From Desulfatiglandales bacterium (GTDB lineage: Bacteria > Desulfobacterota > DSM-4660 > Desulfatiglandales > Desulfatiglandaceae): a DNA stretch of 64,000 nt. How positions within the stretch are numbered: position 1 is the stretch's first letter; each line of letters begins with the position of its first letter. The stretch is taken from positions 3,648,001 through 3,712,000 of the forward strand of contig OY762721.1 of the NCBI GenBank assembly GCA_963666345.1, read 5' to 3'. Below, piece by piece: positions 21,843 to 36,109 of this stretch. The translations under genes and the position numbers were made by a program. Below the pieces are notes generated by a model. It searched no databases and was not told where the DNA came from. It was given only the letters and a program-made list of their open reading frames with translations.

Positions 21843-21957
21843 ATTTTTTATTACCTCCTCGGCCCGGTCCTTAAGACCGGGATTTTTTTACTCAGTATCT
21901 CTTTAAAAAGATTTCGCATGACTTTTGCAGGGGCTTCAACTCTTTTGGGTTCTTCTC

Positions 21958-22359: not shown

Positions 22360-22567
22360 TTCACTTGACCCCTTGACCCCTTGAATCCTATTTGATCACA
22401 ATTAATCAAATGATGTTCCCTGAAGCTTAACAGAGCAATCCTGGATTATCAAGACCGGTCGGAAAGAGATACCGATTTGGCATTTTTCCTTTTTGATGGT
22501 ACATTTATGTCTGATTTTTTTACAGGCTTACGGATCGATCCTTCATACTTCACATCAGGGGAGGACA

Positions 22568-23767
22568 ATGAACCGGATGAAGACCATAGCCGTGGTAGGC
22601 ACCTTTGACTCGAAGGGGGAGGAGCATCTCTTTTTAAAGGAGCGGATAGAGAAAAGAGGCTTTTCAGCCCTCACCATAAACGTGGGCACAAAAGGACCCG
22701 GGACCTTCAAGGCGGATATCGATCTGTTCATCCGGCTTGAAAAAGTGGACGGGCTTGACCATGAAAGCAGAGACAGAGCCATCGCAGCCATGCTTCAAAG
22801 GGCAAAGGAGCTTGTAAGACAACTCCATGAAAGAAAGGAAATCTGTGGAATAATCTCCGCCGGCGGGGGCACCGGCACGCATCTGGGCACCGGCATAATG
22901 AGGGCGGTTCCGATGGGTGTTCCCAAGGTAATGGTATCTACTGTGGCATCAAGGGATATGTCGAAGGTGGTGGGTACCAGGGATATCACCATGATGCACA
23001 GTGTGGCTGACCTTCTGGGGGTAAACAGCATATCAGGAGCCGTGCTTGACAGGGCCGCGGCCGCGGTCTGCGCAATGACGGGTAACGGCTGGAGTCCGGG
23101 GATTGAAAAGAAAAGGATCGCGCTCACGTTTTTCGGTTTTATCACTCCGGCGGCTGAAATGATAAAGGAGCGGCTTGAGCGGCTTGACTACGAGGTGATC
23201 GCCTTTCATGCCAACGGCACGGGCGGCATGGCAATGGAGGAGCTTGCGTCCGAAGGCTATTTCAGCGGCATTCTCGATCTTGGGACACATGAACTGGCCG
23301 ATGAACTGAAAGGGGGATACTGCTCCGGCATAGGGCCTGAAAGGCTTGTCCTCCCGCCGGGCATTGTTTTGCCGAGGCTCGTGGTTCCGGGGGGTCTTGA
23401 CTGCGCGGTCCTTGAGTTTACAAGAGAAAAGATCCCTGAAAAATACAGGGGCAGGAAGATATTTTTCTATGATTTCCGTTCGGCCGTCCGTTTGAATGAA
23501 AAGGAGAGTCTTTTCATTGCCGCGCAGCTTTCGGAAAAATTGAACAAGTCACCTGCCGGGACAAGGGTTCTTGTCCCCCTGGATGGATGGTCAGAGGCGG
23601 ACAGGCAGGGAGGTCCTCTTTACGACCCGGCATTGAGTGGGCTTTTCCTTGATAGATTGAAGCGGACCCTTGATCCTGAAATAGAGGTCATGGAGGTCGG
23701 GATGCATATTAATGATCCTGCGTTTGCGCGGCTTGCCGCCCGAATCATGCATAAGATGATCGGATGA
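22568..23767 (+). CDS. Tm-1-like ATP-binding domain protein (UPF0261)
   Basis: GTFDSKGEE, GGGTGT, P.GVPKVMVST, HSVADL.G.N, FHANGTGG.AME, HINDPAFA. Confidence 0.9.
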   Translation: MNRMKTIAVVGTFDSKGEEHLFLKERIEKRGFSALTINVGTKGPGTFKADIDLFIRLEKVDGLDHESRDRAIAAMLQRAKELVRQLHERKEICGIISAGGGTGTHLGTGIMRAVPMGVPKVMVSTVASRDMSKVVGTRDITMMHSVADLLGVNSISGAVLDRAAAAVCAMTGNGWSPGIEKKRIALTFFGFITPAAEMIKERLERLDYEVIAFHANGTGGMAMEELASEGYFSGILDLGTHELADELKGGYCSGIGPERLVLPPGIVLPRLVVPGGLDCAVLEFTREKIPEKYRGRKIFFYDFRSAVRLNEKESLFIAAQLSEKLNKSPAGTRVLVPLDGWSEADRQGGPLYDPALSGLFLDRLKRTLDPEIEVMEVGMHINDPAFARLAARIMHKMIG

Positions 23768-23786
23768 TCGAACGGCGGCAGGCGAG

Positions 23787-24308
23787 TCAGGCATCATGCG
23801 CTTTCCCCTTGGATTTTAAGCCCTGTTTGAAACTTTCCCAGAACTCCTTGTCATTGTCCTGCCACGCAGCCCCGAATCTTCTTTCAAAATAGGATGAAGG
23901 CAGTTTCTCCTGCCATTTTCCCCAGGGGTCTTCCCCCTTTTTCTTGGCCTCGATAATGTCATTTATAAAAGAGGCGATATCCGCGATCTCATCTTTCGGT
24001 ATATAGGAGTCTGCACCCTGTTTTATCGATTTTACCAGGTTGTCGGGCGTAAACGCATGGGCTGTGAGCATGACGGCCGTTGTGCCTTTACTGTTGCAGA
24101 TTTCAAGAAGTCGGTAACCGTTGACCCCCATGATATCAAGCACTGCTACGTCGAATTCCTCTTTTTCAAGCAGTTCCCGCGCCTCCTCAAACGTGGAGGC
24201 ACTGACCACGTCACACATGAATAAAAGTTCTTCCAGTACCTGCAGAATGTCAGGTTCATCATCGACTATCAAGACCCTTTTACCGTCAAGCAAAGCGGTT
24301 TCAGACAT
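23787..24308 (-). CDS. Single-domain response regulator with C-terminal extension
   Basis: LIVDDEPD, VLDIMG, MLTAHA, YIPK. Confidence 0.9.
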   Translation of the reverse strand: MSETALLDGKRVLIVDDEPDILQVLEELLFMCDVVSASTFEEARELLEKEEFDVAVLDIMGVNGYRLLEICNSKGTTAVMLTAHAFTPDNLVKSIKQGADSYIPKDEIADIASFINDIIEAKKKGEDPWGKWQEKLPSSYFERRFGAAWQDNDKEFWESFKQGLKSKGKAHDA

Positions 24309-24453
24309 GAATTATCCTCCTTTTATAAAATGACGCCCGATCAGTAAACAGTCAAGCGGTCGACTCAAGAACCTATCACATGATCCGGGAATATTCCACT
24401 GAATAGATAAGCAGTCCCATGCCTGATCGTGGATGACGAACCTGTTGCCCGCC

Positions 24454-25401
24454 TTACCTCCTTCTTGCAAGTATCCTGTTCATGAGCGCCCCTATCCCCT
24501 GGGGCGTCATGTCTTTCGGGGTCAGCTTGAGGAGTATGTCCACAAATGCCCGGGCCGCCATTGAAAGATACTGCCCCTCCAAAAAGGCGATGCTCACGTC
24601 AAGAAATATCCTGCCTCCTTCAAGGGGCACGGTTGAAAGGCTTTTCCCCTTGAGCTCAAGGGCGACCGCCTCCTTTACCAGAAAGGAGATCCCTTCTCCC
24701 CTTTGAACCAGCTGTTTGATAAATTCCGTGTTGCTGGTATCCATGAGTATGTCGGGTGTGCAGCCGTTTCGAGTGAAAAGCTCGTTTACCAGCCTCCTAG
24801 TGCCTGATCCGGTCTCCTTCATGATGACCGGCTCTCTGGCCAGATCCCTTATGGAGACGGTCTTTTCTGCGGCCAGCGGGTGATCAGGTGCGAGTATCAC
24901 GACCAGCTCTTCCTCGCTGAAGGGAATGAAACGGACATCGGGGTTTTCCTCCGCCTTGGCGATGATGGCCACTTCGTTTTTGAAGTCCAGCAGGCTGTGA
25001 ATCATGTCAAGGGAGCTTCCCTCATCCAGGTAGATCCTAACCTGAGGGTAGGTTTCATGAAAACCGGTAAGAAGATAAGGCATGAAGTAGCGGGCATAGG
25101 TCTTTGTCGTTCCAAGCCTCAGGACTCCCCTTTTGAGTTCCTTCATCTCCTCTATCAGGTGCTCAAGGTCCCTTTCATAATCAAATACCTTTACGGCGTA
25201 TTCAAAAAGTGTCTTACCCTCGTCCGTAAGATATATGCTGCGGCCCTTTCTCTTAAAGAGCTTGAAGCTGCAGTGTTCTTCAAGGAGCCTTATCTGGGCG
25301 GTAACGGCCGGCTGGGTGATGTATAGACTTTTGGCTGCAAGGGTAAAACTGAGGTGCCTTGCTGTGTGGTAAAAGACCCTGAGTTGATTGAAATTGATCA
25401 T
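24454..25401 (-). CDS. LysR family transcriptional regulator
   Basis: NFNQLRVF..SFTLAAKSLYITQPAVTAQIR.LEE HTH followed by a substrate-binding domain. Confidence 0.96.
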   Translation of the reverse strand: MINFNQLRVFYHTARHLSFTLAAKSLYITQPAVTAQIRLLEEHCSFKLFKRKGRSIYLTDEGKTLFEYAVKVFDYERDLEHLIEEMKELKRGVLRLGTTKTYARYFMPYLLTGFHETYPQVRIYLDEGSSLDMIHSLLDFKNEVAIIAKAEENPDVRFIPFSEEELVVILAPDHPLAAEKTVSIRDLAREPVIMKETGSGTRRLVNELFTRNGCTPDILMDTSNTEFIKQLVQRGEGISFLVKEAVALELKGKSLSTVPLEGGRIFLDVSIAFLEGQYLSMAARAFVDILLKLTPKDMTPQGIGALMNRILARRR

Positions 25402-25424
25402 GTGCCTGTCCTTTAAAAATAAAG

Positions 25425-25498
25425 CCTAAGCAAAATTTATGGATCAGGGTGATGCATAAGTAAAATTTATGTATATCATAAATATTATGAAGTTGACA
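25425..25498. promoter_or_regulatory. LysR-type binding boxes and a -35 element in the divergent lysR/ppsA region
   Basis: CATAA-N7-TTATG (25455-71; fits T-N11-A), a near copy CCTAAGCAAAATTTATG (25425-41), and TTGACA at 25493-98. Confidence 0.6.
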
Positions 25499-25730
25499 GA
25501 CACTTTTCAGTAATAAATTATAAGACTTATTTCCATAACAAGAACCTGGTACCGATCCCTCCACCAGTCCTGAGACCTTATCAAAAAGGATTCCTCATTA
25601 AGCGAAAACGCAGGTCGCTTCCTGAAAGCCTTATCTGAACGTGTTTTTTCTGTCCTGACGTAACGGAATTCCCGGCTCTGTGGGCCTCAAAAAAACAGCA
25701 GTGCCTTAATGGAACGGGAAAAGTGAGCTG

Positions 25731-25796
25731 AAGTGACTAAAGTGACTAAAGTTGGAAGTGACTAAAGTGACTAAAGTTATGGAGTCGCTTCGCTCC
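25731..25796. repeat. AAGTGACTA tandem 9-mers followed by a GGAGTCGCTTCGCTCC mini-hairpin
   Basis: Four exact AAGTGACTA units interrupted by AAGTTGG; same unit as 8094-8138. Confidence 0.85.
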
Positions 25797-26087
25797 GCTT
25801 TCTTAGAGGTTCCATAGCCCTTTGAATCTGGGTTTTTTAGGCATTGCAAAGTCCGGAAGAGCAGGGTGTTTATTTTTCCCGTCCAATTGCAGAATGCAGT
25901 TTTCCTTAAACGTAAGAACCGGAATCAAGAAAGATAAAAAGAAAAAAACAGGAAAGAGGAGCCCCTCCACCTGACCCCCCGGCCCCTCAAATCCCTGTCC
26001 CCTATTTAAGATTTATTTCCCCGGTTTGGGAGTGCATCGACGCTCCACGCAACCATTCCAACCAACAACATCACAGGAGGGGGAAAA

Positions 26088-27947
26088 ATGGCAGATCAAA
26101 AGGCAGGAAGATTTCCGGATCCTCACGATTTCAAGGTGCCTCCCGGCCTGGAGGGCTGGGAAGAGATGTATCCATCGCACTATCTTTTTTCAAAGGAGAG
26201 GGGGGAATGGGAAAAGCAGCAGTTCTGGTATCAGGACAAGATTCATGCCCCTGAACCGGTGCCCCCCCTGGACCTGATCTTCCAGGAGGCCTGGCAGATC
26301 TCCCTTTCACAGTACACCACAAGGGTGTTCTGCATCCCCCCTGCCCAGGGAATCGCCCAGAGGATGGTCGGGTGCTACATGTACATCTGTGCCATCGCGC
26401 CGCCGCCCGATAAGGTTATCGGAGAAAAGGCGGCCCATTTCGAAAAGCGCGTTTTCTACGTGTTCGAGCACTATGACGAACTGTGGGACAAGTGGCTCAA
26501 CAAATTCAAGGCCCTCGGCAACGAGATGTCCGCGGTTGAGATCCCGGAGCAGATGCCCAAATTCGTGCCTGAAGATCAGGTGCTTCCCGCGCCCAGGGGC
26601 TACTACATATCCTATGACGTGATGGAGGCATTCGACAGGCTCGTAAACATGATGTTCAAGGGATGGCAGTACCACTTCGAGATGCTTAACCTCACTTATC
26701 TTGCCTACCTCATGTTCGGCGACGTATCAAGAAAGCTCTTTCCGGGAATCAGCGAGAGTGCCATCGGCAAGATGGTGGCAGGCGCCTATGTGTCGATGTT
26801 CAGGCCGGAGGAGGAGCTGTGCAGACTCGCAAGGCTAGCCTCTTCATCCCGCGGCGTTGCGGATATTCTGAAGACCGATATGTCGGTAGGGCAGAAGGTC
26901 TCCAAGCTTAACAAGATAACCGACGGCAAACACTGGCTGGAGGAGTTTGAGAAATCAAAGGACCCCTGGTTCTACGTGTCCTGCGGAAGCGGGTGGCTGC
27001 ATCATGAGGGAAGCTGGATTACCAACCTTGAAATACCCTACAGCTATATAAAGGGCTATGTGGAAAGCCTTGAAAGGGGCGAGAAGATCGAGCGCTCCCT
27101 TGACCAGATAGACAAAGAAAGGGACCAGATAGTAGAAGAGTACCGCAAACTGATCAAAACCGATGAAGACCGAAAATCGTTTGACGACGCCTACAAGACC
27201 ATCCGGACCATATACCGGTACGCGGAGGATCATCTGTTCTGGGTGGAGCACTGGTTTCACACCATCTGGTATGAAAAGATAAGGAGATTCGGAAGCCTTC
27301 TCAAAGGAAACGGAATGCTCAACGAGGTGGACGATATATTCATGTTCACCCGCTATGAGATCCCGGAGATGCTGACCGAGCTTTCCACCGGCTGGGCCCT
27401 GGGAGTGGACATACCTTTAAGGGGCGATTTTTACAAGGCAAAGGCAAAAAAGAGGAGGAAGATCCTGGATGCTGCATCCGAATGGGCACCCACCCCCGCG
27501 CTCGGCGTACCACCCGAGGAGGTGGCGGAACCCTTCACGATCATGCTCTGGGGCGTGACGACCGATAAGGTAAAGGAATGGCTCAAGGGTGTGGAGGTCC
27601 CGAAAGGAACTGAGATCAGCGAGATAAAGGGATTTGCGGCTTCGGCAGGGGCCGCGGAAGGTCCGGCCAGGGTGCTCAAGCTCTTAAAGGAGATCGTCGA
27701 CATAAAACCGGGTGAGATTATCGTGTGCCCGTCGACCAATCCCTCGTGGGCGCCGGTGTTTACCAAGATCAAGGCGGCTGTCACGGACATCGGCGGGCTT
27801 ACAAGTCATGCGGCCATAGTCTGCCGGGAATACGGAGTACCATCGGTCACGGGAACGGGAGTGGCCACATCCGTGATTAAAACCGGAGACATAATCAGGG
27901 TCGACGGAGACACAGGGCTGGTAACCATAGTGAAGCGGGCGCAGTGA
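26088..27947 (+). CDS. ppsA: Phenylphosphate synthase subunit A-like protein (PEP-utilising phospho-His domain)
   Basis: FPDPHD..PPGLEGWEEMYP, WQYHFEMLNL, HLFWVEHWFH, EPFTIMLWGVT, TDIGGLTSHAAIVCRE. Collinear with Thauera PpsA as recalled. Confidence 0.88.
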   Translation: MADQKAGRFPDPHDFKVPPGLEGWEEMYPSHYLFSKERGEWEKQQFWYQDKIHAPEPVPPLDLIFQEAWQISLSQYTTRVFCIPPAQGIAQRMVGCYMYICAIAPPPDKVIGEKAAHFEKRVFYVFEHYDELWDKWLNKFKALGNEMSAVEIPEQMPKFVPEDQVLPAPRGYYISYDVMEAFDRLVNMMFKGWQYHFEMLNLTYLAYLMFGDVSRKLFPGISESAIGKMVAGAYVSMFRPEEELCRLARLASSSRGVADILKTDMSVGQKVSKLNKITDGKHWLEEFEKSKDPWFYVSCGSGWLHHEGSWITNLEIPYSYIKGYVESLERGEKIERSLDQIDKERDQIVEEYRKLIKTDEDRKSFDDAYKTIRTIYRYAEDHLFWVEHWFHTIWYEKIRRFGSLLKGNGMLNEVDDIFMFTRYEIPEMLTELSTGWALGVDIPLRGDFYKAKAKKRRKILDAASEWAPTPALGVPPEEVAEPFTIMLWGVTTDKVKEWLKGVEVPKGTEISEIKGFAASAGAAEGPARVLKLLKEIVDIKPGEIIVCPSTNPSWAPVFTKIKAAVTDIGGLTSHAAIVCREYGVPSVTGTGVATSVIKTGDIIRVDGDTGLVTIVKRAQ

Positions 27948-28035
27948 TACGAATTTAACCGGAAAGCCCCTTTCCCATTCAGGTCACTTTTTCGCTTCCT
28001 GTCTGTTGAAAGGGGCTTCTAGGTGAAAAGAGATC

Positions 28036-29106
28036 ATGGAACATATACTCGGTTTTGAAAGACTTGACAGGGGTTCCCTCGCCCTTGTGGGGGGAAAGAA
28101 CGCGAGCCTGGGTGAGATGATAAAAAGCGGGGTCCGCGTGCCTCCCGGTTTTGCCGTTACAACCGACAGTTATCTTGGTTTTATAACAAAGACCGGTATA
28201 AAGGAGAAGATCTATGAGGCCCTCGCAGGTCTTGATCCTGAGGATGTGGAATCGCTCGACCGGGCAAGCGGCAAGGCGCGCGGGCTTATCATGGATTCAT
28301 CCATGACAAGGGAGGGGAGGGATGCAATCGCAGGCGGTTATAAAACACTGTGCCGGGATTGCAATAAAGATTACCTGCCTGTGGCGGTCAGATCAAGCGC
28401 AACGGCCGAGGACCTCCCGACCGCCAGTTTCGCCGGCCAGCAGGATACATTCCTCTGGGTCCTTGGGGCGGATAAGGTCATAGGCAATGTCCAGGCCTGC
28501 TGGGCAAGCCTGTTTACCCCCCGTGCCGTCAGCTACAGGATTAGGAACAAGTTTTCCCATGAAAAGGTACTCATAAGCGTCGGTGTCCAGAAGATGGTCA
28601 ATTCGAGGAGCGCCGGTGTCATGTTTACCCTCAATCCGACCAACGGGGACCCTTCAAAGGTGGTCATAGAGGCAAGCTGGGGGCTGGGCGAGACGGTTGT
28701 TTCAGGTTCGGTTAATCCGGACAAGTTCGTGGTGGACAAGGTGATGCTGGAGATCAATGAAAGGGACATATCCAAAAAGCATATAGAATGCCTGTATGAC
28801 CCGGATGAAAAAAAGGTGGTCAACATCGAGGTGGAGCCGGAAAGACAGCAGAAATGCTGCCTGGAGGGCCGTGAGGTAAGGGAACTGGCCAGACTGGCAA
28901 AGGAAATAGAGGTCCATTACGGATGCCCCATGGACATCGAGTGGGCCATAGAAGAAGACGCGTCCTTTCCCGAGAACATATTTATCGTTCAGGCACGGCC
29001 CGAGACCGTCTGGAGCCGGAAGGAGTCAAAGCCCGTCATAGGGGCGAAGAGCGGCTATCAGCTTTTGATGGAAAAGGCGATGACAAGGATAAAGCTGAGG
29101 ACATGA
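28036..29106 (+). CDS. ppsB: Phenylphosphate synthase subunit B-like protein (ATP-binding PEP-synthase N-terminal domain)
   Basis: VGGKNASLGEM, VAVRSSATAEDLP.ASFAGQQDT, GLGETVVSG, DIEWA, VQARPETV. Stand-alone domain next to ppsA. Confidence 0.88.
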   Translation: MEHILGFERLDRGSLALVGGKNASLGEMIKSGVRVPPGFAVTTDSYLGFITKTGIKEKIYEALAGLDPEDVESLDRASGKARGLIMDSSMTREGRDAIAGGYKTLCRDCNKDYLPVAVRSSATAEDLPTASFAGQQDTFLWVLGADKVIGNVQACWASLFTPRAVSYRIRNKFSHEKVLISVGVQKMVNSRSAGVMFTLNPTNGDPSKVVIEASWGLGETVVSGSVNPDKFVVDKVMLEINERDISKKHIECLYDPDEKKVVNIEVEPERQQKCCLEGREVRELARLAKEIEVHYGCPMDIEWAIEEDASFPENIFIVQARPETVWSRKESKPVIGAKSGYQLLMEKAMTRIKLRT

Positions 29107-29270
29107 ATGAGATAAAATCCCCTTGTCCGATTAAGCTGGAGAAGAACCTTTTCAATAATCCGGCATTCAGGGAAAACCAGGATAGAAGGATTTTGCATTT
29201 AAGGGTCATCTCCAAAAGAGTTGATTTAAATGAAGGAGTCTTTGCTCTTCTTATTCCTCGCTCAGTCCCA

Positions 29271-29290
29271 CCCTTCGACAAGCTCAGGGC
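29271..29290. repeat. REP-like short element CCCTTCGACAAGCTCAGGGC
   Basis: Recalled as a widespread REP-like motif; single copy in this window. Confidence 0.45.
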
Positions 29291-29318
29291 GGGTTCCCGG
29301 AAGGGGCCAAGGGTTCTA

Positions 29319-29578
29319 GGTATGGGAGGAAAACGAGTATAGAGTATGTGAGATTTCTCTATATTGCATATGGTTCAGTCTGTGAATCGGAAATTCGGGC
29401 CATGATATCAGCTGAATTGGGTTATTTGAAAGAAGTAAGGCTTCAGGAATTAAGGGGGAAAATCGGGGATGTCGAGACAATGCTCAAAGCGTTGATCAAA
29501 TCCCCGGAAAGAAAACCCTCGAATCCTTGACTCCTGGAACCCTTGGACCCTTTCTCCCAACTAATTGGGAGAAGAACC
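29319..29578 (+). pseudogene. 5'-truncated four-helix-bundle gene with its 3' repeat array
   Basis: Near-identical to the 3' half of 21958-22359 (RFLYIAYGSVCE...RLQELRGKIGDVETMLKA), in the opposite orientation. Confidence 0.85.
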
Positions 29579-29616
29579 GCATTTTTAACCGGCAGAAAGG
29601 GAGGTAAACAGGATCG

Positions 29617-31017
29617 ATGAAAGACATGAGAGATTTTATCCAAGAGGCGGAAGCCCGGGGCCTGCTCCACAGGATAAAGGCCGAGGTGGACTGGAACCTT
29701 GAGCTGTCCCATATCGCAAAACTTAACGAGGAAAACCAGGGACCGGCACTGCTTTTCGAAAACGTCAAGGATTACGACTCCCCAGTCATCACGAGCGTGT
29801 GCACCACCACCGAAAGACTTGCCCTCATAATGGGCATGCCGGGGGAATCGTCCTTGGTGGACATCATGAGGATGTGGGTGGAGAAAAATGAAGACAGGAT
29901 TCCCCCCAGATATGTGGACAATGCGCCGTGCAAGGAAAACATCATGATGGGTGATGATGTGGATCTTTTCAGGTTTCCCGCGCCCAAGTTTTATCCGATG
30001 GACGGCGGGCGTTTTTTCGGTACCGCCCATTTCGTGGTCACAAAAGACCCTGATACCGGGTGGGTCAACCTTGGCACATACAGGCTCCAGCTCCTGGACA
30101 AAAATCATCTCGGAACCCAGTTCATAAAGGGAAAGCATGCGGATATCATGCTCAAGAAATACCAGAAGCTGAAGGAGCCGATGCCTGTTGCGGTAGTGGT
30201 GGGATGCGACCCGATACTCTTTCTGATGGGGGCCTCAAGGCTCTCGGCCTTTGAAAGTGAATATGATTTCGCAGGCTCCATAAGGGGTGAGGCAATAGAT
30301 GTAATAAAGGCTGAGACAAACGACCTGCCGGTTCCGGCCACGGCCGAGATCGTGGTGGAAGGGGAGGTGGACGCGGACACATTCATGGACGAAGGCCCGT
30401 TCGGCGAGTACACAGGCTACTATTCAGGTGTGGGGACCGACCCGAGAAATTTCATAGACGTAAAGTGCGTGACCCACAGGACAAATCCCGTGTTCTGGTC
30501 CACCACGGTGGGACGCGCGGTGACGGACACCCACATGACCATGGCGCTTACCTACGGCGCGACCCTGTGGCAGCAGCTTGTCGCCATGAAAATCCCCGGC
30601 ATAAAGGCGGTCTACTGCCCGCCCGAGGGCTCGGGACGCTTTCTTGCCATAATTTCCATGACCCAGATGTATCCGGGACACGCGGATCAGGTCCTTACCG
30701 CCGCCATATCGACCGAGATGGGCGCCTACGGCCTCAAGACCGTTATCGTGGTGGATGATGATATCGACCCGTGGGATATATCAAGGGTCATGTATGCGCT
30801 CAGCTTCAGGTTTCAGCCTAACAGGAGTCAGGTAATAAAAAGAGGGAGGTCCACCCCGCTTGATCCTTCTCTTCCCTTAAACGCAAGGGAGATCACAGGC
30901 AGGCTCCTGCTGGACGCCACCATACCGTATGACTGGAAGGAAAAGCCGATCCCTATTGAGCTTGATCCGGAGCTGGTGGAAAAGATAAAGGGCCGATGGT
31001 CTGAACTGGGGTTTTAG
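29617..31017 (+). CDS. ppcB: UbiD-family (prFMN) carboxylase, phenylphosphate carboxylase beta subunit-like
   Basis: EVDWNLELSH, GPALLFE, NLGTYR, EGPFGEYTGYY, YPGH, IKRGRSTPLDP, DATIPYDWK. Collinear with PpcB as recalled. Confidence 0.88.
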   Translation: MKDMRDFIQEAEARGLLHRIKAEVDWNLELSHIAKLNEENQGPALLFENVKDYDSPVITSVCTTTERLALIMGMPGESSLVDIMRMWVEKNEDRIPPRYVDNAPCKENIMMGDDVDLFRFPAPKFYPMDGGRFFGTAHFVVTKDPDTGWVNLGTYRLQLLDKNHLGTQFIKGKHADIMLKKYQKLKEPMPVAVVVGCDPILFLMGASRLSAFESEYDFAGSIRGEAIDVIKAETNDLPVPATAEIVVEGEVDADTFMDEGPFGEYTGYYSGVGTDPRNFIDVKCVTHRTNPVFWSTTVGRAVTDTHMTMALTYGATLWQQLVAMKIPGIKAVYCPPEGSGRFLAIISMTQMYPGHADQVLTAAISTEMGAYGLKTVIVVDDDIDPWDISRVMYALSFRFQPNRSQVIKRGRSTPLDPSLPLNAREITGRLLLDATIPYDWKEKPIPIELDPELVEKIKGRWSELGF

Positions 31018-31034
31018 ACAGGGGGAGAATCGAT

Positions 31035-32696
31035 ATGAAGCCTATCCGCTATGATCCGGAAGAGATAGAGAAAAATTTGAGGGAGGGTTTCTGGGATAAG
31101 ACCATCCTGCCCGACTTTTGGGAGAAAAACGCCAGGCTGTGGCCTGACAGGGAGGCCCTTGTCGATTCCCTCGGATCCAGGCTGACCTGGGCCGAGGCCG
31201 CGCAGAGGATCGACAGGATCGCGTTCGGGCTTATAAAGGAGGCGGGTGTTAAGAGGGATGACAGGCTCATGGTGCAGCTTCCTAACTGCGTGGAGCAGGT
31301 CCTTGTTCGCCTTGCCTGTGAAAAGGCGGGGGTCCTTTCCATACCCGAGATGACCACCTTCAGGCAGACGGAGCTTGCGGACATCGCAAAAAGGACGGAC
31401 GCGGCGGGCATGGTAATTGCCAGGAGCTACAGAAACTTCGACCACCATGAAATGGCAAGGGAACTTCAGGCTCAGCTGCCGGGACTCAGGCACATCATAG
31501 TGGCGGGGGACGACGTGCCTCAAGGCTGCATCTCGTTGAACGAGATCATGGCTCACCCATATGAGAAGGAGTTCGACATCCTGGAGCTTATCGCCAGGAA
31601 GCTTGACGCGGTGGAAGAGGTGGGCTTTCTTATCACGACCACCGGCACCACAGGCCTTCCGAAGCTTATCGAGCACAGGATAGCGGCGCGCGAGATCTGG
31701 ACCGCAAGATCGCATGTGAAAAACTGGAAGCTCGGCCCTGATGACTGCGTGATCGCCATCGCCCCGCTCGCAGGGGCCGCCGGGGGCACGCCCGCCTATG
31801 TTACGGCACCGGTGGGGGGAGCCAAAATCGCCCTTGAATACCAGTACAGGGGAGAGGAAACGCTCGCCTTCATGGAACAGGAGCGGGTCACGGTGATCGC
31901 CCTTGTGCCGACCCAGCTCGCAAGGCTGCTGGAACTTCCCACCGGCAAATATGACCTTTCATCTTTAAGGATAATAAAGACCGCCGGAGGGTACCTGCCG
32001 CCCCCGCTTGCAAAGGAGGCCCAGGAGAGGTTCAACTGCCCCATCCTCGGGACATACGGCACGCAGGATACAGGTTCCATATCAGGGGTGCCGATCGACG
32101 CACCCGAGGACCTGAGAAACTTCACCGTTGGAAGGCTTCATCCGGGAATAGAGATAAAGATACTGGATGATGAGGGAAACCGGGTTGAAAAAGGGGGCGT
32201 GGGCACCCTATGGTTCAAGGGGCCGGGAAATTCGATCGGTTATTACAGGGATATAGATAAAACCATGAACGAGGCCTTTGACAGGGACGGTTTTGCCACG
32301 CCCGGAGACCTTGTGGAGCTTATGGATGACGGTTATATCAAGATCATGGGCAGGAAGAAGAACATCATCATAAGGGGCGGGCAGAACATATATCCAAGGG
32401 AGATAGAGGACTATCTGCTGGCGCACGAAAAGGTCACTAACGCGGCCGTCGTTCCCATGCCTGATCCTCAGATGGGTGAGAGGGCGTGCGCCTTTGTCAC
32501 GGTCAAAAAGGGAGAGATGTTCCAATTCGAGGAGATGATCGCATATCTCAAGGAAAAGAAGATCGCTCCCTTTAAGCTGCCTGAAAGGCTCGAGGTACTC
32601 GACGCCCTTCCCCTGGTCGGGGAAAGCGGCAAGATAAACAACAAGGAAATGGTCAGGATCATAACCGAGAAGCTTAAGGAGGAGGGGAAGATCTAA
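31035..32696 (+). CDS. Aryl/acyl-CoA ligase (AMP-binding)
   Basis: TTTGTTGLPK, YGTQD, GDL, GRKKNIIIRGGQNI, KLPERL, GKI. Confidence 0.92.
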   Translation: MKPIRYDPEEIEKNLREGFWDKTILPDFWEKNARLWPDREALVDSLGSRLTWAEAAQRIDRIAFGLIKEAGVKRDDRLMVQLPNCVEQVLVRLACEKAGVLSIPEMTTFRQTELADIAKRTDAAGMVIARSYRNFDHHEMARELQAQLPGLRHIIVAGDDVPQGCISLNEIMAHPYEKEFDILELIARKLDAVEEVGFLITTTGTTGLPKLIEHRIAAREIWTARSHVKNWKLGPDDCVIAIAPLAGAAGGTPAYVTAPVGGAKIALEYQYRGEETLAFMEQERVTVIALVPTQLARLLELPTGKYDLSSLRIIKTAGGYLPPPLAKEAQERFNCPILGTYGTQDTGSISGVPIDAPEDLRNFTVGRLHPGIEIKILDDEGNRVEKGGVGTLWFKGPGNSIGYYRDIDKTMNEAFDRDGFATPGDLVELMDDGYIKIMGRKKNIIIRGGQNIYPREIEDYLLAHEKVTNAAVVPMPDPQMGERACAFVTVKKGEMFQFEEMIAYLKEKKIAPFKLPERLEVLDALPLVGESGKINNKEMVRIITEKLKEEGKI

Positions 32697-32732
32697 CGGC
32701 CTCCCCGGTTCGGGAATATAGCCGTGGTGTAG

Positions 32733-32835
32733 GGTTATATGTTATAGGTTATTTGAAAATGAGTGAACAGAAGCCTTGTCTTCGGCTGCGTACTCTAGTT
32801 TTCCGGCAATCTTTCTAACCAATAACGAACAACCA
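32733..32835. repeat. Opposed 7-mer arrays (GTTATAT GTTATAG GTTATTT ... CTAACCA ATAACGA ACAACCA)
   Basis: Three 7-nt units on each side, roughly reverse-complementary, around a ~60 nt spacer. Confidence 0.5.
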
Positions 32836-32912
32836 GATGCCTAACCAGTGTGCCATTTTAAGGAAACGTGGGCAAACGAGTGGTTGCTCCATGCCAGGAA
32901 GGAATCCCCCCC

Positions 32913-33509
32913 ATGACCCATGACGGCAAAAGGCCCCTGATCCTCTTTGTATGCTGCGGAAACAGGGAAAGGAGCGTGATAGCGGAAAACCTTTTTAAAA
33001 AGATGCTGAAAAAGGGATATCCTGATTTATCAGACCGGGTGGATGCGGCCTCAGCCGGCATATTCCCCAGGTCATATTTAGAGCATGCAGGGGAAAACGG
33101 GGTCTTTTTCGAAGAACCTTTTTTTTCAAAAAAGGCCAATACCTATGCCGTGGATTACCTCCTGAAAAAGGGGATAGACGTAGCATCATACAGGTCAAGG
33201 CGGATTAACTCAGGTCTTGTCACAGATGCCCTTCTCATACTTGCCGTAGATCGGGTGATAAGGGATGAGATCCTTTTCTTTTATCCGGAGGTCCAAGGCA
33301 GGGTCCATACCCTCAGGGAGTTCGTGTTCGGCCCGGAAGGGGACCTCGATATAGGTGATCCCATGAAACTGCCCGTTGTTGATAAGGACACCGGCGCCTG
33401 GATATGGCCTGACGAATACCCCGTGAGGTATATAAAGGAGATCGAGGAGAGCCTTGAAAAGGGAATGGTCAAGATAGTGGCTTACATAATGAGCGAGGGG
33501 ATGGATTAG
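32913..33509 (+). CDS. Low-molecular-weight phosphatase (LMW-PTP/ArsC fold)
   Basis: ILFVCCGNRERS (CX5R P-loop), SAG, DIGDP general-acid motif. Confidence 0.85.
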   Translation: MTHDGKRPLILFVCCGNRERSVIAENLFKKMLKKGYPDLSDRVDAASAGIFPRSYLEHAGENGVFFEEPFFSKKANTYAVDYLLKKGIDVASYRSRRINSGLVTDALLILAVDRVIRDEILFFYPEVQGRVHTLREFVFGPEGDLDIGDPMKLPVVDKDTGAWIWPDEYPVRYIKEIEESLEKGMVKIVAYIMSEGMD

Positions 33510-33510
33510 A

Positions 33511-34749
33511 TTGAATAGAACAAAGGGTGCGATCATAGTTCTGGTAATGGCTGAGGAAAAATGGGTGGAGGCGAATTTTTTCCGTGCTCAAATTACCTCT
33601 CTCGGCCACAGGGCCGAGATCCTTGATATGGGCCTTACCGGAGGGCCTGCCGGGCCCTGCGCTATCGGACGGGAGGAGGTGATAGCGGCAGGCGGCACAG
33701 GCGTGGACGAGGCCTCTCTTATAACGGACAGGGGCAAGAGGATGCCCCTTATGATAAAGGGGGGGAGAAAAAAGGTAAAAGAGCTTTACGAACAGGGAAT
33801 GCTCACAGGGGTCGTGAGCCTTGGGGGGACCACGGGGACCCAGATGGGGACCTCCATCATGAAGGCGCTTCCATTCGGCGTTCCCAAGCTCGCGGTGTCA
33901 AGCACGGCATCGCTTAAGGGGTTCGCCTCAAGATACCTCGGTACATCGGATGTCTCGCTCATGCACACGGTGGTCGAGATCGCGGGGCTTAACCGGTTCA
34001 TGAAAAACGCGCTTGCACGCGCGGCAGGGGCCGTGTGCGGCATGGTGGAGGGGGGGCTCAGGGAGCCTGTCGCGCCGGAACAGGGGGGTGTGAGTCCGGT
34101 TGTAGCCATGACCCACTTCGGGCCGTGCGAACATTGCGCGGTAAGGGTTCGAAATCTACTTGAGGAGCGCGGTTACCAGGTGGTGGGTTTTTCCGCTGCC
34201 GGTATCGGGGATCGGGCCATGGAGGAGATAATCGAATCGGGCGGCGTCTTTTCTGCGGTCATAGATCTTGCCACGGGCGGGGTGGGTGAGGAACTGCTGG
34301 GATTTGCCAGGGCAGCGGGGGCCTCAAGGCTTGAGGCGGCGGGAAAAAAGGGGATACCGCAGGTGATTGCCACAAGCGGGGTCAATTTCGGCTCCCCCTG
34401 GAAGTACAGGTACAAGCCTGAATATGAGTCAAGAAAAAAAATTGAGTATGACAGAGCCCGCACCTTTATAAGGCTCTCGCAAGACGAGTTGGTCCGGGTG
34501 GCGACCGTCATGGCGGAAAAGTTGAACCGCGCAGCGGGTCCGGTGAGGGTGGTAATCCCGCTTGGCGGGTGGTCATCCGTTGATAAGAAGGGAAGCTTCT
34601 TTTATGATGGTGAGGCGGATCAGGTATTTGTCGAGACGCTGGAAAGGGAATTGCGGGACGATATCGAGGTCAGGGAAGTGGACGCGGACCTTGAGACGGA
34701 TGAATTCGCAAAGGTTATCGTGGATTCGTTTCTGGAAATTATTTCGTAG
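33511..34749 (+). CDS. Second Tm-1-like ATP-binding domain protein (UPF0261)
   Basis: GGTTGT, LPFGVPKL.VSS, HTVVEIAGLN, GIGDRAME, PLGGWS. Confidence 0.88.
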   Translation: MNRTKGAIIVLVMAEEKWVEANFFRAQITSLGHRAEILDMGLTGGPAGPCAIGREEVIAAGGTGVDEASLITDRGKRMPLMIKGGRKKVKELYEQGMLTGVVSLGGTTGTQMGTSIMKALPFGVPKLAVSSTASLKGFASRYLGTSDVSLMHTVVEIAGLNRFMKNALARAAGAVCGMVEGGLREPVAPEQGGVSPVVAMTHFGPCEHCAVRVRNLLEERGYQVVGFSAAGIGDRAMEEIIESGGVFSAVIDLATGGVGEELLGFARAAGASRLEAAGKKGIPQVIATSGVNFGSPWKYRYKPEYESRKKIEYDRARTFIRLSQDELVRVATVMAEKLNRAAGPVRVVIPLGGWSSVDKKGSFFYDGEADQVFVETLERELRDDIEVREVDADLETDEFAKVIVDSFLEIIS

Positions 34750-34794
34750 AGAGAATCAGGTGCCGGTTGCCTGATAAACGCGCGGGGGCCTTAC

Positions 34795-35178
34795 ATGGAA
34801 TACAGGTTCATGACGCATGAGGGGTGCTATGATCTTGTGGCGAACGCAAGACTGGTGGGAGACGATCTGCTGGTTGCCATATGGGGCGGAGACAGGCCCC
34901 ATATCGGCGCTGTATCCATGGCCCAGCCCAGGGCAAGCCTCAGGGACCCTTCAAAGCTGAGTGCTACTGCTTCCGTGTTCACGTATGTGGGGCACAAGGA
35001 GGACATTCTCGCAAAACCCGCTTCAGAGACCCTGGCCTCCGCCCTGAACAAGAAGGTGGTGGTAACGGCAGGTATCCACTGGGATGATATGGAAGAAAAG
35101 GGCATTAAAAGGGTGATAAAAAACTGTGAGATTCTGATCGGGATGATTGTAAAGGAGTTTTCATCTTCAAAAAGCTGA
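34795..35178 (+). CDS. lpdD: Prenylated-FMN chaperone LpdD-like protein
   Basis: GDDLLV.I.GG..PHIGAV, GHKED, VVVTAGIH; directly upstream of ubiX. Confidence 0.7.
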   Translation: MEYRFMTHEGCYDLVANARLVGDDLLVAIWGGDRPHIGAVSMAQPRASLRDPSKLSATASVFTYVGHKEDILAKPASETLASALNKKVVVTAGIHWDDMEEKGIKRVIKNCEILIGMIVKEFSSSKS

Positions 35179-35207
35179 CTCTGTCAGGCGTGGGGGATGG
35201 TTCTAAA

Positions 35208-35780
35208 ATGAAAAAAAGACTCATTATCGCGATAACCGGCGCAAGCGGTGTGATTTACGGTGTGAGGATGCTCGAACTGATAAGGGAACACGGCTTTGAG
35301 ACGCATCTTATAATATCAGAGGCGGGCAAGAAGAATATCGAGATCGAGACAGGCTTTAAGCTCAGGGATATAAAGGCGCTTGCCGATTACAGCCATGAAA
35401 ACATGGACGTGGGGGCCCCGCTTGCAAGCGGCTCGTTTCTGACGGGGGGTATGGTGGTGGTGCCCTGTACCATCAAGACCCTGTCAGGGATTACCAATTC
35501 CTACAACGACAACCTGATCGTGAGGGCGGCAGACGTCACGTTAAAGGAGGGGCGCAAGCTGGTGCTGGTTGTAAGGGAGACCCCTCTTCACAAGGGGCAT
35601 CTGAGACTCATGACCATGGCGGCCGATGTGGGCGCCCACATACTTCCCCCGGTCCCATCCTTTTATAACAAGCCTGAAACCATCGACGACATAATCAATC
35701 AGACCATAGGAAAGATCTTCGACTACCTGGGCGTGGAGCACGATCTGTTTGCCCGCTGGGGAAGATATGACTCATGCTGA
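35208..35780 (+). CDS. ubiX: Flavin prenyltransferase
   Basis: ITGASG, ASGSF, RAADVTLKEGRKLVLVVRETP, PPVPSFY. Confidence 0.96.
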   Translation: MKKRLIIAITGASGVIYGVRMLELIREHGFETHLIISEAGKKNIEIETGFKLRDIKALADYSHENMDVGAPLASGSFLTGGMVVVPCTIKTLSGITNSYNDNLIVRAADVTLKEGRKLVLVVRETPLHKGHLRLMTMAADVGAHILPPVPSFYNKPETIDDIINQTIGKIFDYLGVEHDLFARWGRYDSC

Positions 35781-35794
35781 ATAAATGCTGATAG

Positions 35795-36106
35795 TCATAA
35801 AAACAGACTTGCAATGGATGGGACCCGCTCGGCAATTTTGACCGCTATTTGACCGAGCTTTTCTATCTGCGCCTTGAGTTGTGCCTGAGACAGGTTGACC
35901 CTTGAGGCCTCCTTTACAACGGTGATGAGTTCATCATATTTTTCAAGGTCCGTGGTATCCGGCGTGATTGTGTCCACCTCGGCACGCGAGAGACCTTCCA
36001 GTTCGTTAAGCTGATCCTTGTATATCCCCTTAAATACCTCCCGTCCCTTTTCAAGGGTTTCTTCAAGGTCCGCCTCAAATCCTTCAAGATCAAAATCATC
36101 CGACAT
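35795..36106 (-). CDS. Hypothetical acidic alpha-helical protein
   Basis: 103 aa ORF starting 3 nt after the upstream lipoprotein gene; RBS GGAGG. Confidence 0.7.
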   Translation of the reverse strand: MSDDFDLEGFEADLEETLEKGREVFKGIYKDQLNELEGLSRAEVDTITPDTTDLEKYDELITVVKEASRVNLSQAQLKAQIEKLGQIAVKIAERVPSIASLFL

Positions 36107-36109
36107 CTC

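Follow-up and report, generated by a model that had tools for sequence, protein, structure and literature searches.

A widespread single-UbiD operon, probably for anaerobic activation of phenol-like compounds, with a conserved ligase, phosphatase and kinase-like module, in a Desulfatiglandales bacterium

Gene content and spread of the operon

The gene cluster described here, found in a 64,000-nucleotide window of a Desulfatiglandales genome (contig OY762721.1), is of a known kind, serving the anaerobic activation of phenol-like compounds in strict anaerobes, and is not a one-off; what sets it apart is a conserved trio of aromatic-acid ligase, small phosphatase and kinase-like protein that is so far undescribed. 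With moderate confidence, we read it as a LysR-controlled "single-UbiD" operon through which phenol or a close phenolic would be phosphorylated, carboxylated by a prFMN-dependent enzyme and then ligated to CoA. Its gene content, the family memberships, the conservation of the module and the absences reported below are established directly.

Profile matches recovered every gene named in a preliminary description of this DNA, from the ppsA-like gene to ubiX, on the + strand throughout, so that the co-orientation claimed there is borne out. The upstream UPF0261 gene (UPF0261a, 22568..23767, + strand) is separated from ppsA by two genes on the - strand: one for a receiver-only response-regulator protein of 173 aa (23787..24308; PF00072, 51.5 bits), the other for a LysR-type regulator (24454..25401; PF00126 and PF03466) that is divergent from ppsA. 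Many related loci have a homologue of the receiver-only protein (57-72% identity) encoded between the UbiD and ligase genes, and a LysR gene (31-74% identity) adjoins ppsA in most of them, mostly in divergent orientation. The combination of LysR, PpsA, PpsB, one beta-type UbiD, an aryl-acid ligase, UPF0261, LpdD and UbiX is a widespread operon in Desulfobacterota. Downstream of 50 distinct UbiD genes (at least 70% identity, each followed by 5 kb of sequence or more), UPF0261 was present in 47 cases, the ligase in 38 and UbiX in 34; relatives of the UbiD number 278 in species-representative genomes, and 401 Desulfobacterota genomes together hold 36 places with a PpsA of the window's type (clade A, see below).

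Synthase subunits and the single UbiD

The PpsA-like aryl-phosphate synthase alpha subunit (26088..27947, + strand) has the PF00391 mobile domain and scores 861.6 bits against NF006153 (cut-off 578), and the PpsB-like ATP-binding subunit (28036..29106, + strand) matches PF01326 with 396.9 bits. As canonical anchor we used the ppsABC-ppcBDAG cluster of Azoarcus sp. KH32C (plasmid pAZKH, AZKH_RS23470-23525), whose homologues in the window are PpsA (42.5% identity), PpsB (50.7%), PpcB (47.6%) and UbiX (53.6%). In the alignment, the window PpsA reads QDKIHAPEP at residue 49, while the Azoarcus protein has YDGLHYPEP at the same position; the motif given for the phenol enzyme in the preliminary description is thus right for the PpsA of this canonical cluster. 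Trees place the window PpsA in clade A, a lineage apart from the Azoarcus/Thauera-type clade B that includes the Azoarcus anchor; identities to Azoarcus PpsA fall in a band of 39-45% for clade A and of 51-70% for clade B. The tree distance from clade A to canonical clade B equals that of a Rhodococcus P450-context kinase, which counts against the reading given above.

The single beta-type UbiD (29617..31017, + strand), a predicted prFMN carboxylase, passes the NCBI equivalog cut-off for PpcB (TIGR02724 phenyl_P_beta, 502.3 bits against 468.95), is less similar to Azoarcus PpcA (32.9%) than to PpcB, and falls in subclade II of the PpcB superclade; its EGPFGEYTGYY stretch is invariant in 45/45 relatives. 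At the end of the operon lie genes for a predicted LpdD-like prFMNH2 chaperone (34795..35178, + strand; PF21758, 122.2 bits) and for the UbiX flavin prenyltransferase (35190..35780, + strand; NF004685, 255.5 bits against 188). By genome-wide search, UbiD, UbiX and LpdD are single copies confined to this cluster. The three could instead form a hydroxyarylic-acid decarboxylase of the Vdc/Lpd type with the kinase genes as unrelated neighbours. The UbiD does match VdcC (333 bits) and the UbiX VdcB (238.9 bits), and LpdD, a known prFMN chaperone (PMC10865409), serves decarboxylases of this kind as chaperone or third subunit. However, both scores lie below their cut-offs (650 and 290), the UbiD passes the PpcB cut-off and not the VdcC one, it is linked to PpsAB across many loci, and the benzoyl-CoA route in this organism needs the acid, not the phenol; we regard a decarboxylase as the least probable of the explanations weighed here, and as very improbable in itself.

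Missing subunits

The preliminary description had found no PpsC, second UbiD or small Ppc subunit in the window, and this holds beyond it: a search of the complete contig that makes up the genome (4.16 Mb; completeness 96.7%), also suggested there, gave no PpsC, PpcA, PpcC or PpcD. The UbiD family has one match in the entire genome, on which Azoarcus PpcB, PpcA and third-UbiD queries all land. A tblastn search of the genome with Azoarcus PpcG found nothing, and PpcC/gamma had no genome match, although its profile matched in no control genome either and the search is weak in this respect. The best matches for PpsC, at 26% identity, are generic CBS proteins. The sole PpcD-like match, which scores 140 bits where the cut-off is 282, is KdsC; its gene adjoins that of KDO-8-P synthase, just before lptC, lptB and rpoN.

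Compared with the Azoarcus cluster, the window cluster thus lacks the sigma-54 regulator, the CBS-domain PpsC, PpcD, PpcA, PpcG and the third UbiD. The Azoarcus cluster also encodes a PaaK-type ligase and, right after UbiX, a DUF120 and a NUDIX protein, the last two missing in the window; conversely, it is without UPF0261, LpdD and LMW-PTP, all three of which the window has.

Comparison with Desulfatiglans anilini and Geobacter

The studied example of such a cluster is the phenol-induced "phe" cluster of D. anilini (H567DRAFT_02049-02061; Xie & Muller 2018, PMC6114531; PMC7500099). By annotation, it comprises pps-alpha (615 aa), pps-beta (358 aa), one ppc-beta (468 aa), UbiX, a 2,3-dihydroxybenzoate-AMP-type ligase (552 aa), a phenol-induced UPF0261 protein (403 aa), a second UPF0261 protein (02061) and a phenol-induced CheY-like receiver of 175 aa (H567DRAFT_02050); it is without PpcC and without a true PpcD (PMC6114531; PMC7500099). 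The annotated gene types are as in the window, a comparison made by annotation and identity bands. The accessory proteins, earlier thought to be new, are therefore mostly regular members of this operon type: two UPF0261 proteins, the DHB-AMP-type ligase, the receiver-only protein and UbiX are all in phe, UPF0261 is also part of the aniline-induced cluster of D. anilini and has a published kinase activity, and LpdD is, as cited above, a known chaperone.

Extracts of phenol-grown D. anilini form phenylphosphate (PMC6114531; PMC7500099), but phenylphosphate carboxylase activity could not be demonstrated (PMC6114531). The identities of D. anilini to T. aromatica proteins (Pps-alpha 42%, Ppc-beta 49%, UbiX 56%; PMC6114531; PMC7500099) parallel those of the window to Azoarcus (42.5, 47.6 and 53.6%). 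By these published identities, the D. anilini phenol enzyme, with its 42%, falls in the clade-A band and not in that of clade B; a clade-A PpsA need not imply a substrate other than phenol.

There are also differences. In phe, the space from 02058 to 02057 leaves no room for an LMW-PTP gene. Unlike the window cluster, phe includes HCR genes and a gene for a phenylacetate-CoA-type ligase. D. anilini also encodes other beta-type UbiDs outside phe (03563, 03872), whereas the window genome has one UbiD. Two UbiD subunits were needed in the D. anilini aniline assay (PMC7500099), and the single UbiD here counts against the phenol reading. Aniline itself, a candidate substrate in the preliminary description, is unlikely. 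The "ani" cluster of D. anilini encodes a phenylphosphoamidate synthase, Pas-alpha/beta (PMC7500099), along with ppc-beta, an acyl-CoA synthetase and a UPF0261 protein (03869) that was detected on aniline or 4-aminobenzoate and on no other substrate; its Pas-alpha has 554 aa and is 26.7% identical to the organism's own Pps-alpha, and Pas-like alpha subunits form a far outgroup of the window PpsA at 23-29% identity. In Geobacter metallireducens, the pps-ppc operon Gmet_2100-2102 has, like the window, ppsA, ppsB and only a ppcB homologue (Butler 2007, PMC1924859).

A proposed route

From sequence and gene context we infer all of the reactions, which substrate is used, and what the phosphatase and the two UPF0261 proteins do. 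We suggest that PpsA and PpsB would act as a dikinase, in which ATP would pyrophosphorylate the His of the PpsA mobile domain (GGLTSH, at residue 569) and the phenolic OH would then be phosphorylated. UbiX would supply prFMN, delivered by LpdD to the single beta-type UbiD; the latter would carboxylate the aryl phosphate, and the resulting acid would be trapped as CoA thioester by the DHB-AMP-type ligase. Enzymes encoded elsewhere could complete the route: the genome has two HCR-like sets (XDH-family reductases resembling 4-hydroxybenzoyl-CoA reductase), BamA (539.7 bits, cut-off 464) and Had (468 bits, cut-off 339). Of the subunits of the Thauera enzyme, alpha, gamma and the HAD-type delta are absent. 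The LMW-PTP-like protein may be the aryl-phosphate hydrolase of this variant, acting on the carboxylase substrate or on a still-phosphorylated product. Phenol or a close phenolic as the predicted substrate is supported by the annotation, induction and identity bands of D. anilini, by BamA, Had and the HCR-like sets, and by precedents for the kinase (MarK) and the phosphatase that are discussed below.

UPF0261 proteins

UPF0261 is now known as a phenol-kinase family: the multiple aromatic kinase MarK of Novosphingobium aromaticivorans (Saro_1862, PDB 9MPY) phosphorylates phenols while converting ATP to ADP, and shows that a PpsAB-like dikinase can be replaced by a UPF0261 kinase (PMC12624787). 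Both window proteins, of this Tm-1-like family, share the two UPF0261 domains of MarK (PF06792 and PF23189) at modest similarity (151-164 bits); MarK is partnered by a biotin carboxylase, while the window proteins sit with UbiD. The UPF0261a reading frame (22493-23767) opens at TTG 22493, with ATG 22568 as the likely start, and its product scores 364.7 bits against NF002674 (cut-off 335). Aligned with MarK, it keeps the ATP- and phenol-binding residues, with D-S-K at D14/T15/K16 and with G195 and H219, while H304 is replaced by Tyr; a-type relatives in related loci are 44-64% identical. UPF0261a, with its kinase motif intact, is most likely a MarK-like ATP-to-ADP phenol kinase. UPF0261b (33511..34749, + strand) is a divergent member of the MarK family with E-E-K at D14/T15/K16; it retains G195 but carries Ser in place of H219 and Tyr in place of H304, and its EEKGSYV pattern is also found in 6 relatives (65-68% identity). 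Because two ATP-motif residues and the phenol-binding His are lost, the role of UPF0261b is probably a derived one, linked with the ligase step; the loss of H219 and of D-T in the ATP motif also counts against our reading of the operon.

The ligase-phosphatase-UPF0261b module

The ligase gene (31035..32696, + strand; PF00501 and PF13193) encodes an aryl-acid AMP/CoA ligase that we call type 2 (ligase-2), a relative of DHB-AMP and salicylate-AMP ligases whose closest solved structures are salicylate-AMP ligase 5wm2 and DhbE 1md9. It is followed by the gene for the LMW-PTP-like putative aryl-phosphatase (32913..33509, + strand; PF01451, 56.2 bits against 23.2), and UPF0261b starts 1 nt past the stop of the latter. 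These three genes form a distinct conserved variant module, seen in 45 metagenome loci, of which our literature search found no description. Among LMW-PTP loci, ligase-2 lies upstream in 21 of the 23 evaluable and UPF0261 downstream in 22 of 24; the ligase of such loci is 76-85% identical to that of the window, the commoner type 1 only 43-50%. Ligase-2 clusters at 76% identity or more number at least 120, and LMW-PTP relatives 125.

The phosphatase keeps the catalytic Cys, Arg, Ser and Asp, with a C-X5-R-S P-loop (VCCGNRERS) and a GDP loop. Its AF2 model (pLDDT 90.5) has YwlE arginine phosphatases and LMW-PTPs as best Foldseek matches (PDB 4pic, 4kk3, 4egs; TM 0.78-0.84 on the target), with which it shares the fold, the C-X5-R-S P-loop and the Asp loop. 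In contrast to these, to which it is no more than 22-28% identical, the window protein has the P-loop sequence CCGNRERS and ~45 extra residues, among them a conserved W-x-W-P stretch, and its gene is part of a catabolic operon instead of a signalling context.

The module bears on whether the cluster serves a substrate other than phenol, as the preliminary description proposed. The same chemistry could act on another phenolic (cresol, catechol, hydroquinone or aminophenol), with the phosphate serving as a handle during carboxylation and ligation until the LMW-PTP cleaves it off, as in the Hpe/Acv and Cre pathways, and with UPF0261b handling a second hydroxyl or the acid; we consider this possible but rather unlikely. 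The tight linkage of the three genes and the co-variation of UPF0261b subtypes with ligase type speak for it, as does the separate lineage of clade A, given that PpsAB-like kinases form substrate-specific clades (PMC9618137). In two genomes (G199 and G258), moreover, the ligase-2/LMW-PTP module shares a contig with a second cluster that has ligase-1 and HCR genes, an arrangement that speaks for distinct functions. HCR-like genes occur in 12/56 ligase-1 loci, and at ligase-2 loci only where a ligase-1 cluster co-occurs; together, the side-by-side clusters and the HCR distribution hint that ligase-2 handles a different acid. On the other hand, the window has the types of PpsA and UbiD that we infer for phe, which phenol induces; the module is found alongside both PpsA clades and two subclades of UbiD, so that no single kinase or carboxylase is specific to it, the phosphatase is missing in 5/8 ligase-2 genomes (UbiD- or PpsA-anchored sets), and the sequence names no substrate. 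Of the earlier proposal, the minimal subunit set, the separate PpsA lineage and the distinct ligase module thus stand, while a substrate different from phenol is only possible and the accessories are mostly known.

A further explanation is that the LMW-PTP and UPF0261 serve the cofactor supply of UbiX and UbiD (dimethylallyl phosphate or FMN), not the aromatic substrate, in place of the DUF120 and NUDIX proteins, which in Azoarcus may have that function. The latter two are missing here, where the only prFMN system of the genome resides, and in loci L186 and L191 the phosphatase directly follows LpdD-UbiX. We nevertheless think it very unlikely: the phosphatase is tied to ligase-2 and not to UbiX in those 21 of 23 loci, UPF0261b types track ligase type, and the sole UPF0261 activity on record is on phenols.

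Our preferred reading, with the phosphatase as an aryl-phosphate hydrolase, has precedents. Dedicated phosphatases are found in PpsAB-like pathways, namely HpeD (Hpe pathway) and AcvF (acetovanillone operon); in the Hpe pathway, the carboxylase does not accept its substrate unless this is phosphorylated, and the phosphate is taken off the product by HpeD (PMC9618137), which fits the use of phosphate as a handle on another phenolic as well. The Hpe/Acv (acetovanillone) and Cre (4-cresol) pathways combine a PpsAB-type dikinase with a separate phosphohydrolase, as proposed for the window; unlike the window, they use biotin carboxylases or P450 oxidation and HAD- or HD-type phosphatases, in aerobic hosts. 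The Rhodococcus plasmid locus carries P450, SDR and ALDH genes and one for an annotated HD-domain protein; we take this locus to be "Cre-type", with CreD as the HD enzyme.

Gene content and composition of the cluster

The host genome consists of one contig of 4.16 Mb and is 96.7% complete; in it, eight plus-strand genes run from PpsA to UbiX (26088-35780). The PpsA-like protein has the mobile His domain (PF00391), the motif GGLTSH at residue 569 and a match of 861.6 bits to NF006153, and the adjoining gene encodes a PpsB-like protein with a PPDK_N ATP-binding domain (PF01326). The UbiD protein reaches 502.3 bits against the phenylphosphate carboxylase beta model TIGR02724, over the NCBI equivalog cut-off of 468.95. 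The adenylate-forming ligase (31035-32696) has salicylate-AMP and 2,3-dihydroxybenzoate-AMP ligases as its nearest solved relatives, and the protein related to low-molecular-weight protein tyrosine phosphatases (LMW-PTP) matches PF01451 at 56.2 bits. UPF0261b (33511-34749; PF06792 and PF23189) has its start codon one base past the phosphatase stop, and is found together with an LpdD-like gene (PF21758) and UbiX, the last of the eight, which ends at 35780. Next to ppsA on its 5' side is a LysR gene in divergent orientation, with the receiver-only gene and then another UPF0261 gene further out, UPF0261a (22568-23767, plus strand; PF06792 and PF23189), whose ATG at 22568 is the start of the feature as initially delimited. 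The profile searches thus located every gene named in the preliminary description.

The G+C content of the cluster (22493-35780) is 52.7-53.8%, compared to 48.0% for the genome and 41-44% for the flanks, and the cluster genes are single-copy in the genome, with the exception of the receiver. IS200-like and IS21-type transposase genes are found less than 25 kb from the cluster, at 44874-45674 and 57937-60172; together with the G+C content, this is compatible with horizontal acquisition.

The receiver-only protein (173 aa; 23787-24308, minus strand) has six paralogues in the genome at 44-61% identity, and in many relatives (loci L034-L036 and L090-L130) a homologue is located between the UbiD and ligase genes. 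In Desulfatiglans anilini, a CheY-like protein of 175 aa (H567DRAFT_02050) is reported to be abundant on phenol (PMC7500099). Such abundance is unusual for a regulator, and it is conceivable that the protein is a phospho-carrier acting beside the phospho-His of PpsA.

Subunits of the canonical enzymes

Thauera-type PpsABC phosphorylates phenol, converting ATP to AMP and Pi. Compared to that enzyme, the window encodes an alpha/beta pair without the CBS-domain PpsC, and the alpha protein falls outside the canonical clade; compared to Thauera-type PpcABCD, it encodes the beta-type UbiD, while the alpha and the HAD-type delta subunits are absent. PpsC, a second UbiD and a small Ppc subunit had already been noted as missing from the window, and they were not found genome-wide either. 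The whole genome has one member of the UbiD family, to which the Azoarcus PpcB, PpcA and third-UbiD queries all map, and no second (alpha) UbiD subunit. An Azoarcus PpsC query retrieved only generic CBS proteins at 26% identity genome-wide; a PpsC homologue (28-43% identity) is present in 20 related loci. A tblastn search of the genome with Azoarcus PpcG gave no match. The gamma subunit model TIGR02725 had no match genome-wide, a search without a positive control, as the family matched no control genome either and short proteins are easily missed. The genome-wide result for ppsC and ppcACD is thus negative throughout, with this reservation for gamma.

For the delta subunit PpcD, the sole match in the genome reached 140 bits, where the cut-off is 282. 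Because a KDO-8-P synthase gene adjoins it, followed by lptC, lptB and rpoN, we assign this gene to KdsC. The 'ppc-delta' candidate of D. anilini is likewise described as a KDO-8-P phosphatase, and was not seen in the proteome (PMC6114531).

A small Ppc subunit was also looked for in the 510 bp that separate PpsB from UbiD, but the sole content there is a fragmentary gene for a 23S rRNA-intervening-sequence protein. The 60-aa ORF in question (29348-29530, plus strand) covers profile positions 60-105/106, i.e. the C-terminal half, at 27.2 bits against a gathering score of 33.8, and is probably a truncated remnant.

Phylogeny of PpsA and UbiD

A search with the window's PpsA against 401 Desulfobacterota genomes gave three tiers of matches: 36 places at 61-100% identity, approximately 43 full-length proteins at 38-47%, and a far group at 23-29%. 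As canonical anchor we used the PGAP-annotated ppsA-ppsB-CBS-ppcB-ppcD-ppcA-ppcG cluster of Azoarcus sp. KH32C. In a FastTree phylogeny of 85 PpsA sequences, the window falls into a clade of 52 rows (clade A, support 100), while the Azoarcus anchor lies inside a clade of 27 rows (clade B). A mixture-model IQ-TREE analysis of 39 PpsA rows left an unresolved three-way split between clade B, a group with a Rhodococcus plasmid kinase (whose setting is of P450, HD and ALDH genes), and clade A, joined by a protein from a haloarchaeal plasmid. The motif contrast noted for PpsA turned out to be diagnostic: the window reads DKIHAPEP and Azoarcus DGLHYPEP, with DKIH[A/D]PE[P/A] in 52/52 clade-A rows and D[G/A]LHYP[E/I]P in 27/27 clade-B rows. 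The window's UbiD belongs to subclade II of the PpcB superclade, whose sister group comprises canonical PpcB and another single-UbiD group.

From the separate clade, a substrate other than phenol need not follow. Identity to Azoarcus PpsA is 39-45% in clade A and 51-70% in clade B, and Pps-alpha of D. anilini is 42% identical to that of T. aromatica (PMC6114531), which is in the clade-A band. Assuming that the Azoarcus and T. aromatica enzymes are close, a clade-A PpsA would be compatible with phenol. Aniline, one of the suggested substrates, is unlikely: alpha proteins resembling the phenylphosphoamidate synthase (Pas) of D. anilini are an outgroup with 23-29% identity to the window's PpsA, and Pas-alpha itself has 554 aa vs 619 aa in the window.

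Haloarchaeal PpsA/PpsB-like pairs, one on a plasmid of Natrinema sp. DC36 (L217) and three further search matches (H1, H3 and H5), group with clade A with support 100. Instead of UbiD, they have metallophosphoesterase, aldehyde dehydrogenase and dioxygenase genes as neighbours.

A large operon family and the similarly annotated cluster of D. anilini

We mapped the window's proteins onto 40 loci found by PpsA and 80 loci found by UbiD (the best 80 of 278 UbiD relatives), which come almost entirely from metagenome-assembled genomes and include no studied strain. The recurring order is LysR, PpsA, PpsB, UbiD, in some cases a receiver, ligase, UPF0261, LpdD and UbiX, with UbiD identity to the window of 76-88% across the mapped loci. 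Downstream of 50 distinct UbiD genes (at least 70% identity, with 5 kb or more of sequence beyond the gene), UPF0261 is found in 47/50, the ligase in 38/50, UbiX in 34/50 and LpdD in 22/50; in the five canonical loci where a second UbiD of the PpcA type is present, no UPF0261 gene lies within the operon. Modularity is seen at the ligase slot, which is occupied by a type 1 ligase in the majority (43-50% identity to the window's), a type 2 ligase such as that of the window (76-85%), or a PaaK-type ligase.

The phenol-induced cluster of D. anilini encodes Pps-alpha (615 aa), Pps-beta (358 aa), Ppc-beta (468 aa), a '2,3-dihydroxybenzoate-AMP ligase' of 552 aa to which the authors assign no function, UbiX and two UPF0261 proteins, 02057 (phenol-induced) and 02061 (PMC6114531, PMC7500099); the aniline-induced cluster includes another UPF0261 protein, 03869 (PMC7500099). 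By annotation, the window and the phenol-induced cluster share ppsA-ppsB, one beta-type UbiD, a DHB-AMP-type ligase, UPF0261 and UbiX. The accessory proteins, thought to be new in the preliminary description, are therefore mostly usual constituents of a cluster that has already been studied in part, as D. anilini has UPF0261, ligase, receiver and UbiX annotated there (and, for UPF0261, in the aniline-induced cluster as well). It had also been considered that the genes might match a studied cluster while the missing subunits are encoded elsewhere; the gene set is similar by annotation, and the missing subunits were not found elsewhere in this genome. The comparison with D. anilini is one of identity bands and lengths only, and lengths overlap, 615 aa occurring in both PpsA clades; its UPF0261 (403 aa) and ligase (552 aa) lean weakly to the type 1 arrangement, to which we give little weight.

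The best-supported reading is that the window holds a phenol-type operon for phosphorylation, carboxylation and CoA ligation, of the D. anilini/Geobacter kind. The substrate may be phenol or a close phenolic, and the phosphate may leave in the course of carboxylation or only afterwards. The D. anilini study itself raises the question of how carboxylation proceeds with one UbiD and without the Thauera phosphatase and partner subunits, and activity of the carboxylase could not be measured there (PMC6114531). The cluster bears on this question of how energy-limited strict anaerobes with one UbiD subunit carboxylate phenol, and the window is a compact case: the one prFMN system of the genome is located here, and no subunits were found elsewhere. 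The window also holds three candidates for phosphoryl handling, namely two MarK-family proteins and the LMW-PTP.

UPF0261 proteins

MarK of Novosphingobium, a UPF0261 protein, phosphorylates phenolics with conversion of ATP to ADP and replaces the PpsAB-like dikinase AcvAB/HpeHI; D14-T15-K16 of the ATP motif and G195, H219 and H304 of the phenol site are each more than 90% conserved among MarK homologues (PMC12624787). Aligned to MarK, UPF0261a has D-S-K, keeps G195 and H219 and has Y for H304, while UPF0261b has E-E-K, keeps the G, and has S for H219 and Y for H304. Among 105 UPF0261 proteins of related loci, the in-operon subtypes track the ligase type: DTK..S occurs with ligase type 1, EEK..S with type 2, and DER..H or DTR..H in loci that lack a DHB-type ligase. 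Exceptions to the type 2 rule are L114 and L117, which have a type 1 ligase, and L058, with DTK..ST.

A module of ligase, phosphatase and UPF0261

The LMW-PTP-like protein has the Cys-X5-Arg-Ser loop VCCGNRERS and an Asp loop, DIGDP; its AF2 model (pLDDT 90.5) has YwlE arginine phosphatases and LMW-PTPs as top structural matches (E ~1e-10). By P-loop, Asp loop and predicted fold it is a member of the LMW-PTP/arsenate-reductase superfamily. It has 125 relatives at E <=1e-5, of about 200 aa and 50-90% identity, almost all of them metagenomic. Of the 121 loci anchored on UbiD or PpsA, it is present only in the window and in loci of two other genomes; scanning metagenomes with its alignment yielded 45 loci. 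Immediately 5' of the phosphatase gene, 21 of 23 evaluable loci have a type 2 ligase gene, and immediately 3' of it 22 of 24 have a UPF0261 gene; L186 and L191 are the two exceptions in each count. This module of type 2 ligase, LMW-PTP and UPF0261b is found in combination with each of the PpsA clades and each of the single-UbiD groups. Beyond the core, the longer LMW-PTP loci contain unrelated genes for housekeeping or transport and so offer no hint of the substrate. Since at least 45 metagenome loci, as well as DNA from marine sediment, have kept the module, it likely matters for phenolic turnover in sediments.

A route with a different substrate, or one in which the phosphate is retained, is possible, and the comparison of loci offers an argument for it in that the module coexists with a type 1 cluster on the same contig. 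Genomes G199 (L056/L057) and G258 (L058) have two complete aryl-phosphate clusters in tandem on one contig, the first with a clade-A PpsA and a type 1 ligase, followed by genes resembling 4-hydroxybenzoyl-CoA reductase (HCR), the second with a clade-B PpsA, a HAD hydrolase, a type 2 ligase and the LMW-PTP. HCR-alpha-like genes are present in 12/56 loci with a type 1 ligase, and in type 2 loci only where a type 1 cluster is also present, many type 2 contigs being short.

In the best-supported reading, hydrolysis of the aryl phosphate would fall to the LMW-PTP. Dedicated phosphatases are reported for pathways built on related kinases, i.e. HpeD with a PpsAB-like kinase (PMC9618137) and AcvF with a PpsAB-like or MarK kinase (PMC12624787), and an HD-domain protein is annotated at the Rhodococcus plasmid kinase locus. 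The proposal of a retained phosphate, in its full form, is that the module represents a distinct, undescribed route, in which the single prFMN enzyme would carboxylate an aryl phosphate with retention of the phosphate, the phospho-acid would be converted to its CoA ester, and the LMW-PTP would dephosphorylate last, possibly with a phenolic other than phenol; we consider this improbable. If true, it would be a third pathway using phosphate as a handle, beside Hpe/Acv and Cre, and the first that is anaerobic and UbiD-based; it would also explain carboxylases that work without alpha, gamma and delta subunits. Among the papers covered by our literature search, none joined phenylphosphate/UbiD carboxylation with an LMW-PTP, a tyrosine or arginine phosphatase, or an arsenate reductase. 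Two reports on benzene degradation (PMC13101534, PMC13416013) proved to have no bearing on this system.

Between UPF0261b and LpdD, locus L172 encodes a 200-aa HD-domain protein (L172:5777-6379), a further phosphohydrolase candidate. Homologues occur in L173, L174, L176, L179, L183, L185, L114 and L117, and weaker ones (29-47%) in type 1 loci.

Surroundings and downstream route

Directly 3' of ubiX, on the minus strand, are four ORFs of 103, 249, 136 and 408 aa (35795-38788) that match no Pfam family at E <=1e-5, one of them having a weak AAA_13 match. TctC/TctB/TctA genes (14148-17263) with an adjoining sulfatase gene (span 14148-18702) lie on one side of the cluster; on the other side are TctC/TctA genes (55116-57659), again with an adjoining sulfatase gene (span 53632-57659), and no TctB was found there. 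An Rfam search over 21800-37000 gave no match at E up to 0.1, and scans for promoter-like sites (20 vs 11.5 +/- 3.8 expected) and terminator-like sites (20 vs 16.9 +/- 4.7 expected) were uninformative.

The window's flanks contain no benzoyl-CoA genes. Elsewhere in the genome, BamA and Had exceed their cut-offs, and there are six AOR-family genes. Two three-subunit sets of the XDH family have HCR as best model at 759 and 575 bits, below the cut-off of 994.55, and one of these sets adjoins a PaaK-type ligase and a TRAP transporter. Caprolactamase/acetophenone-carboxylase-like alpha and beta genes (G000:C1:1737256-1741082 in genome coordinates; L220:1256-5082) are neighbours of an XDH-family reductase gene, together with genes for a PaaK-type ligase and a TRAP transporter.
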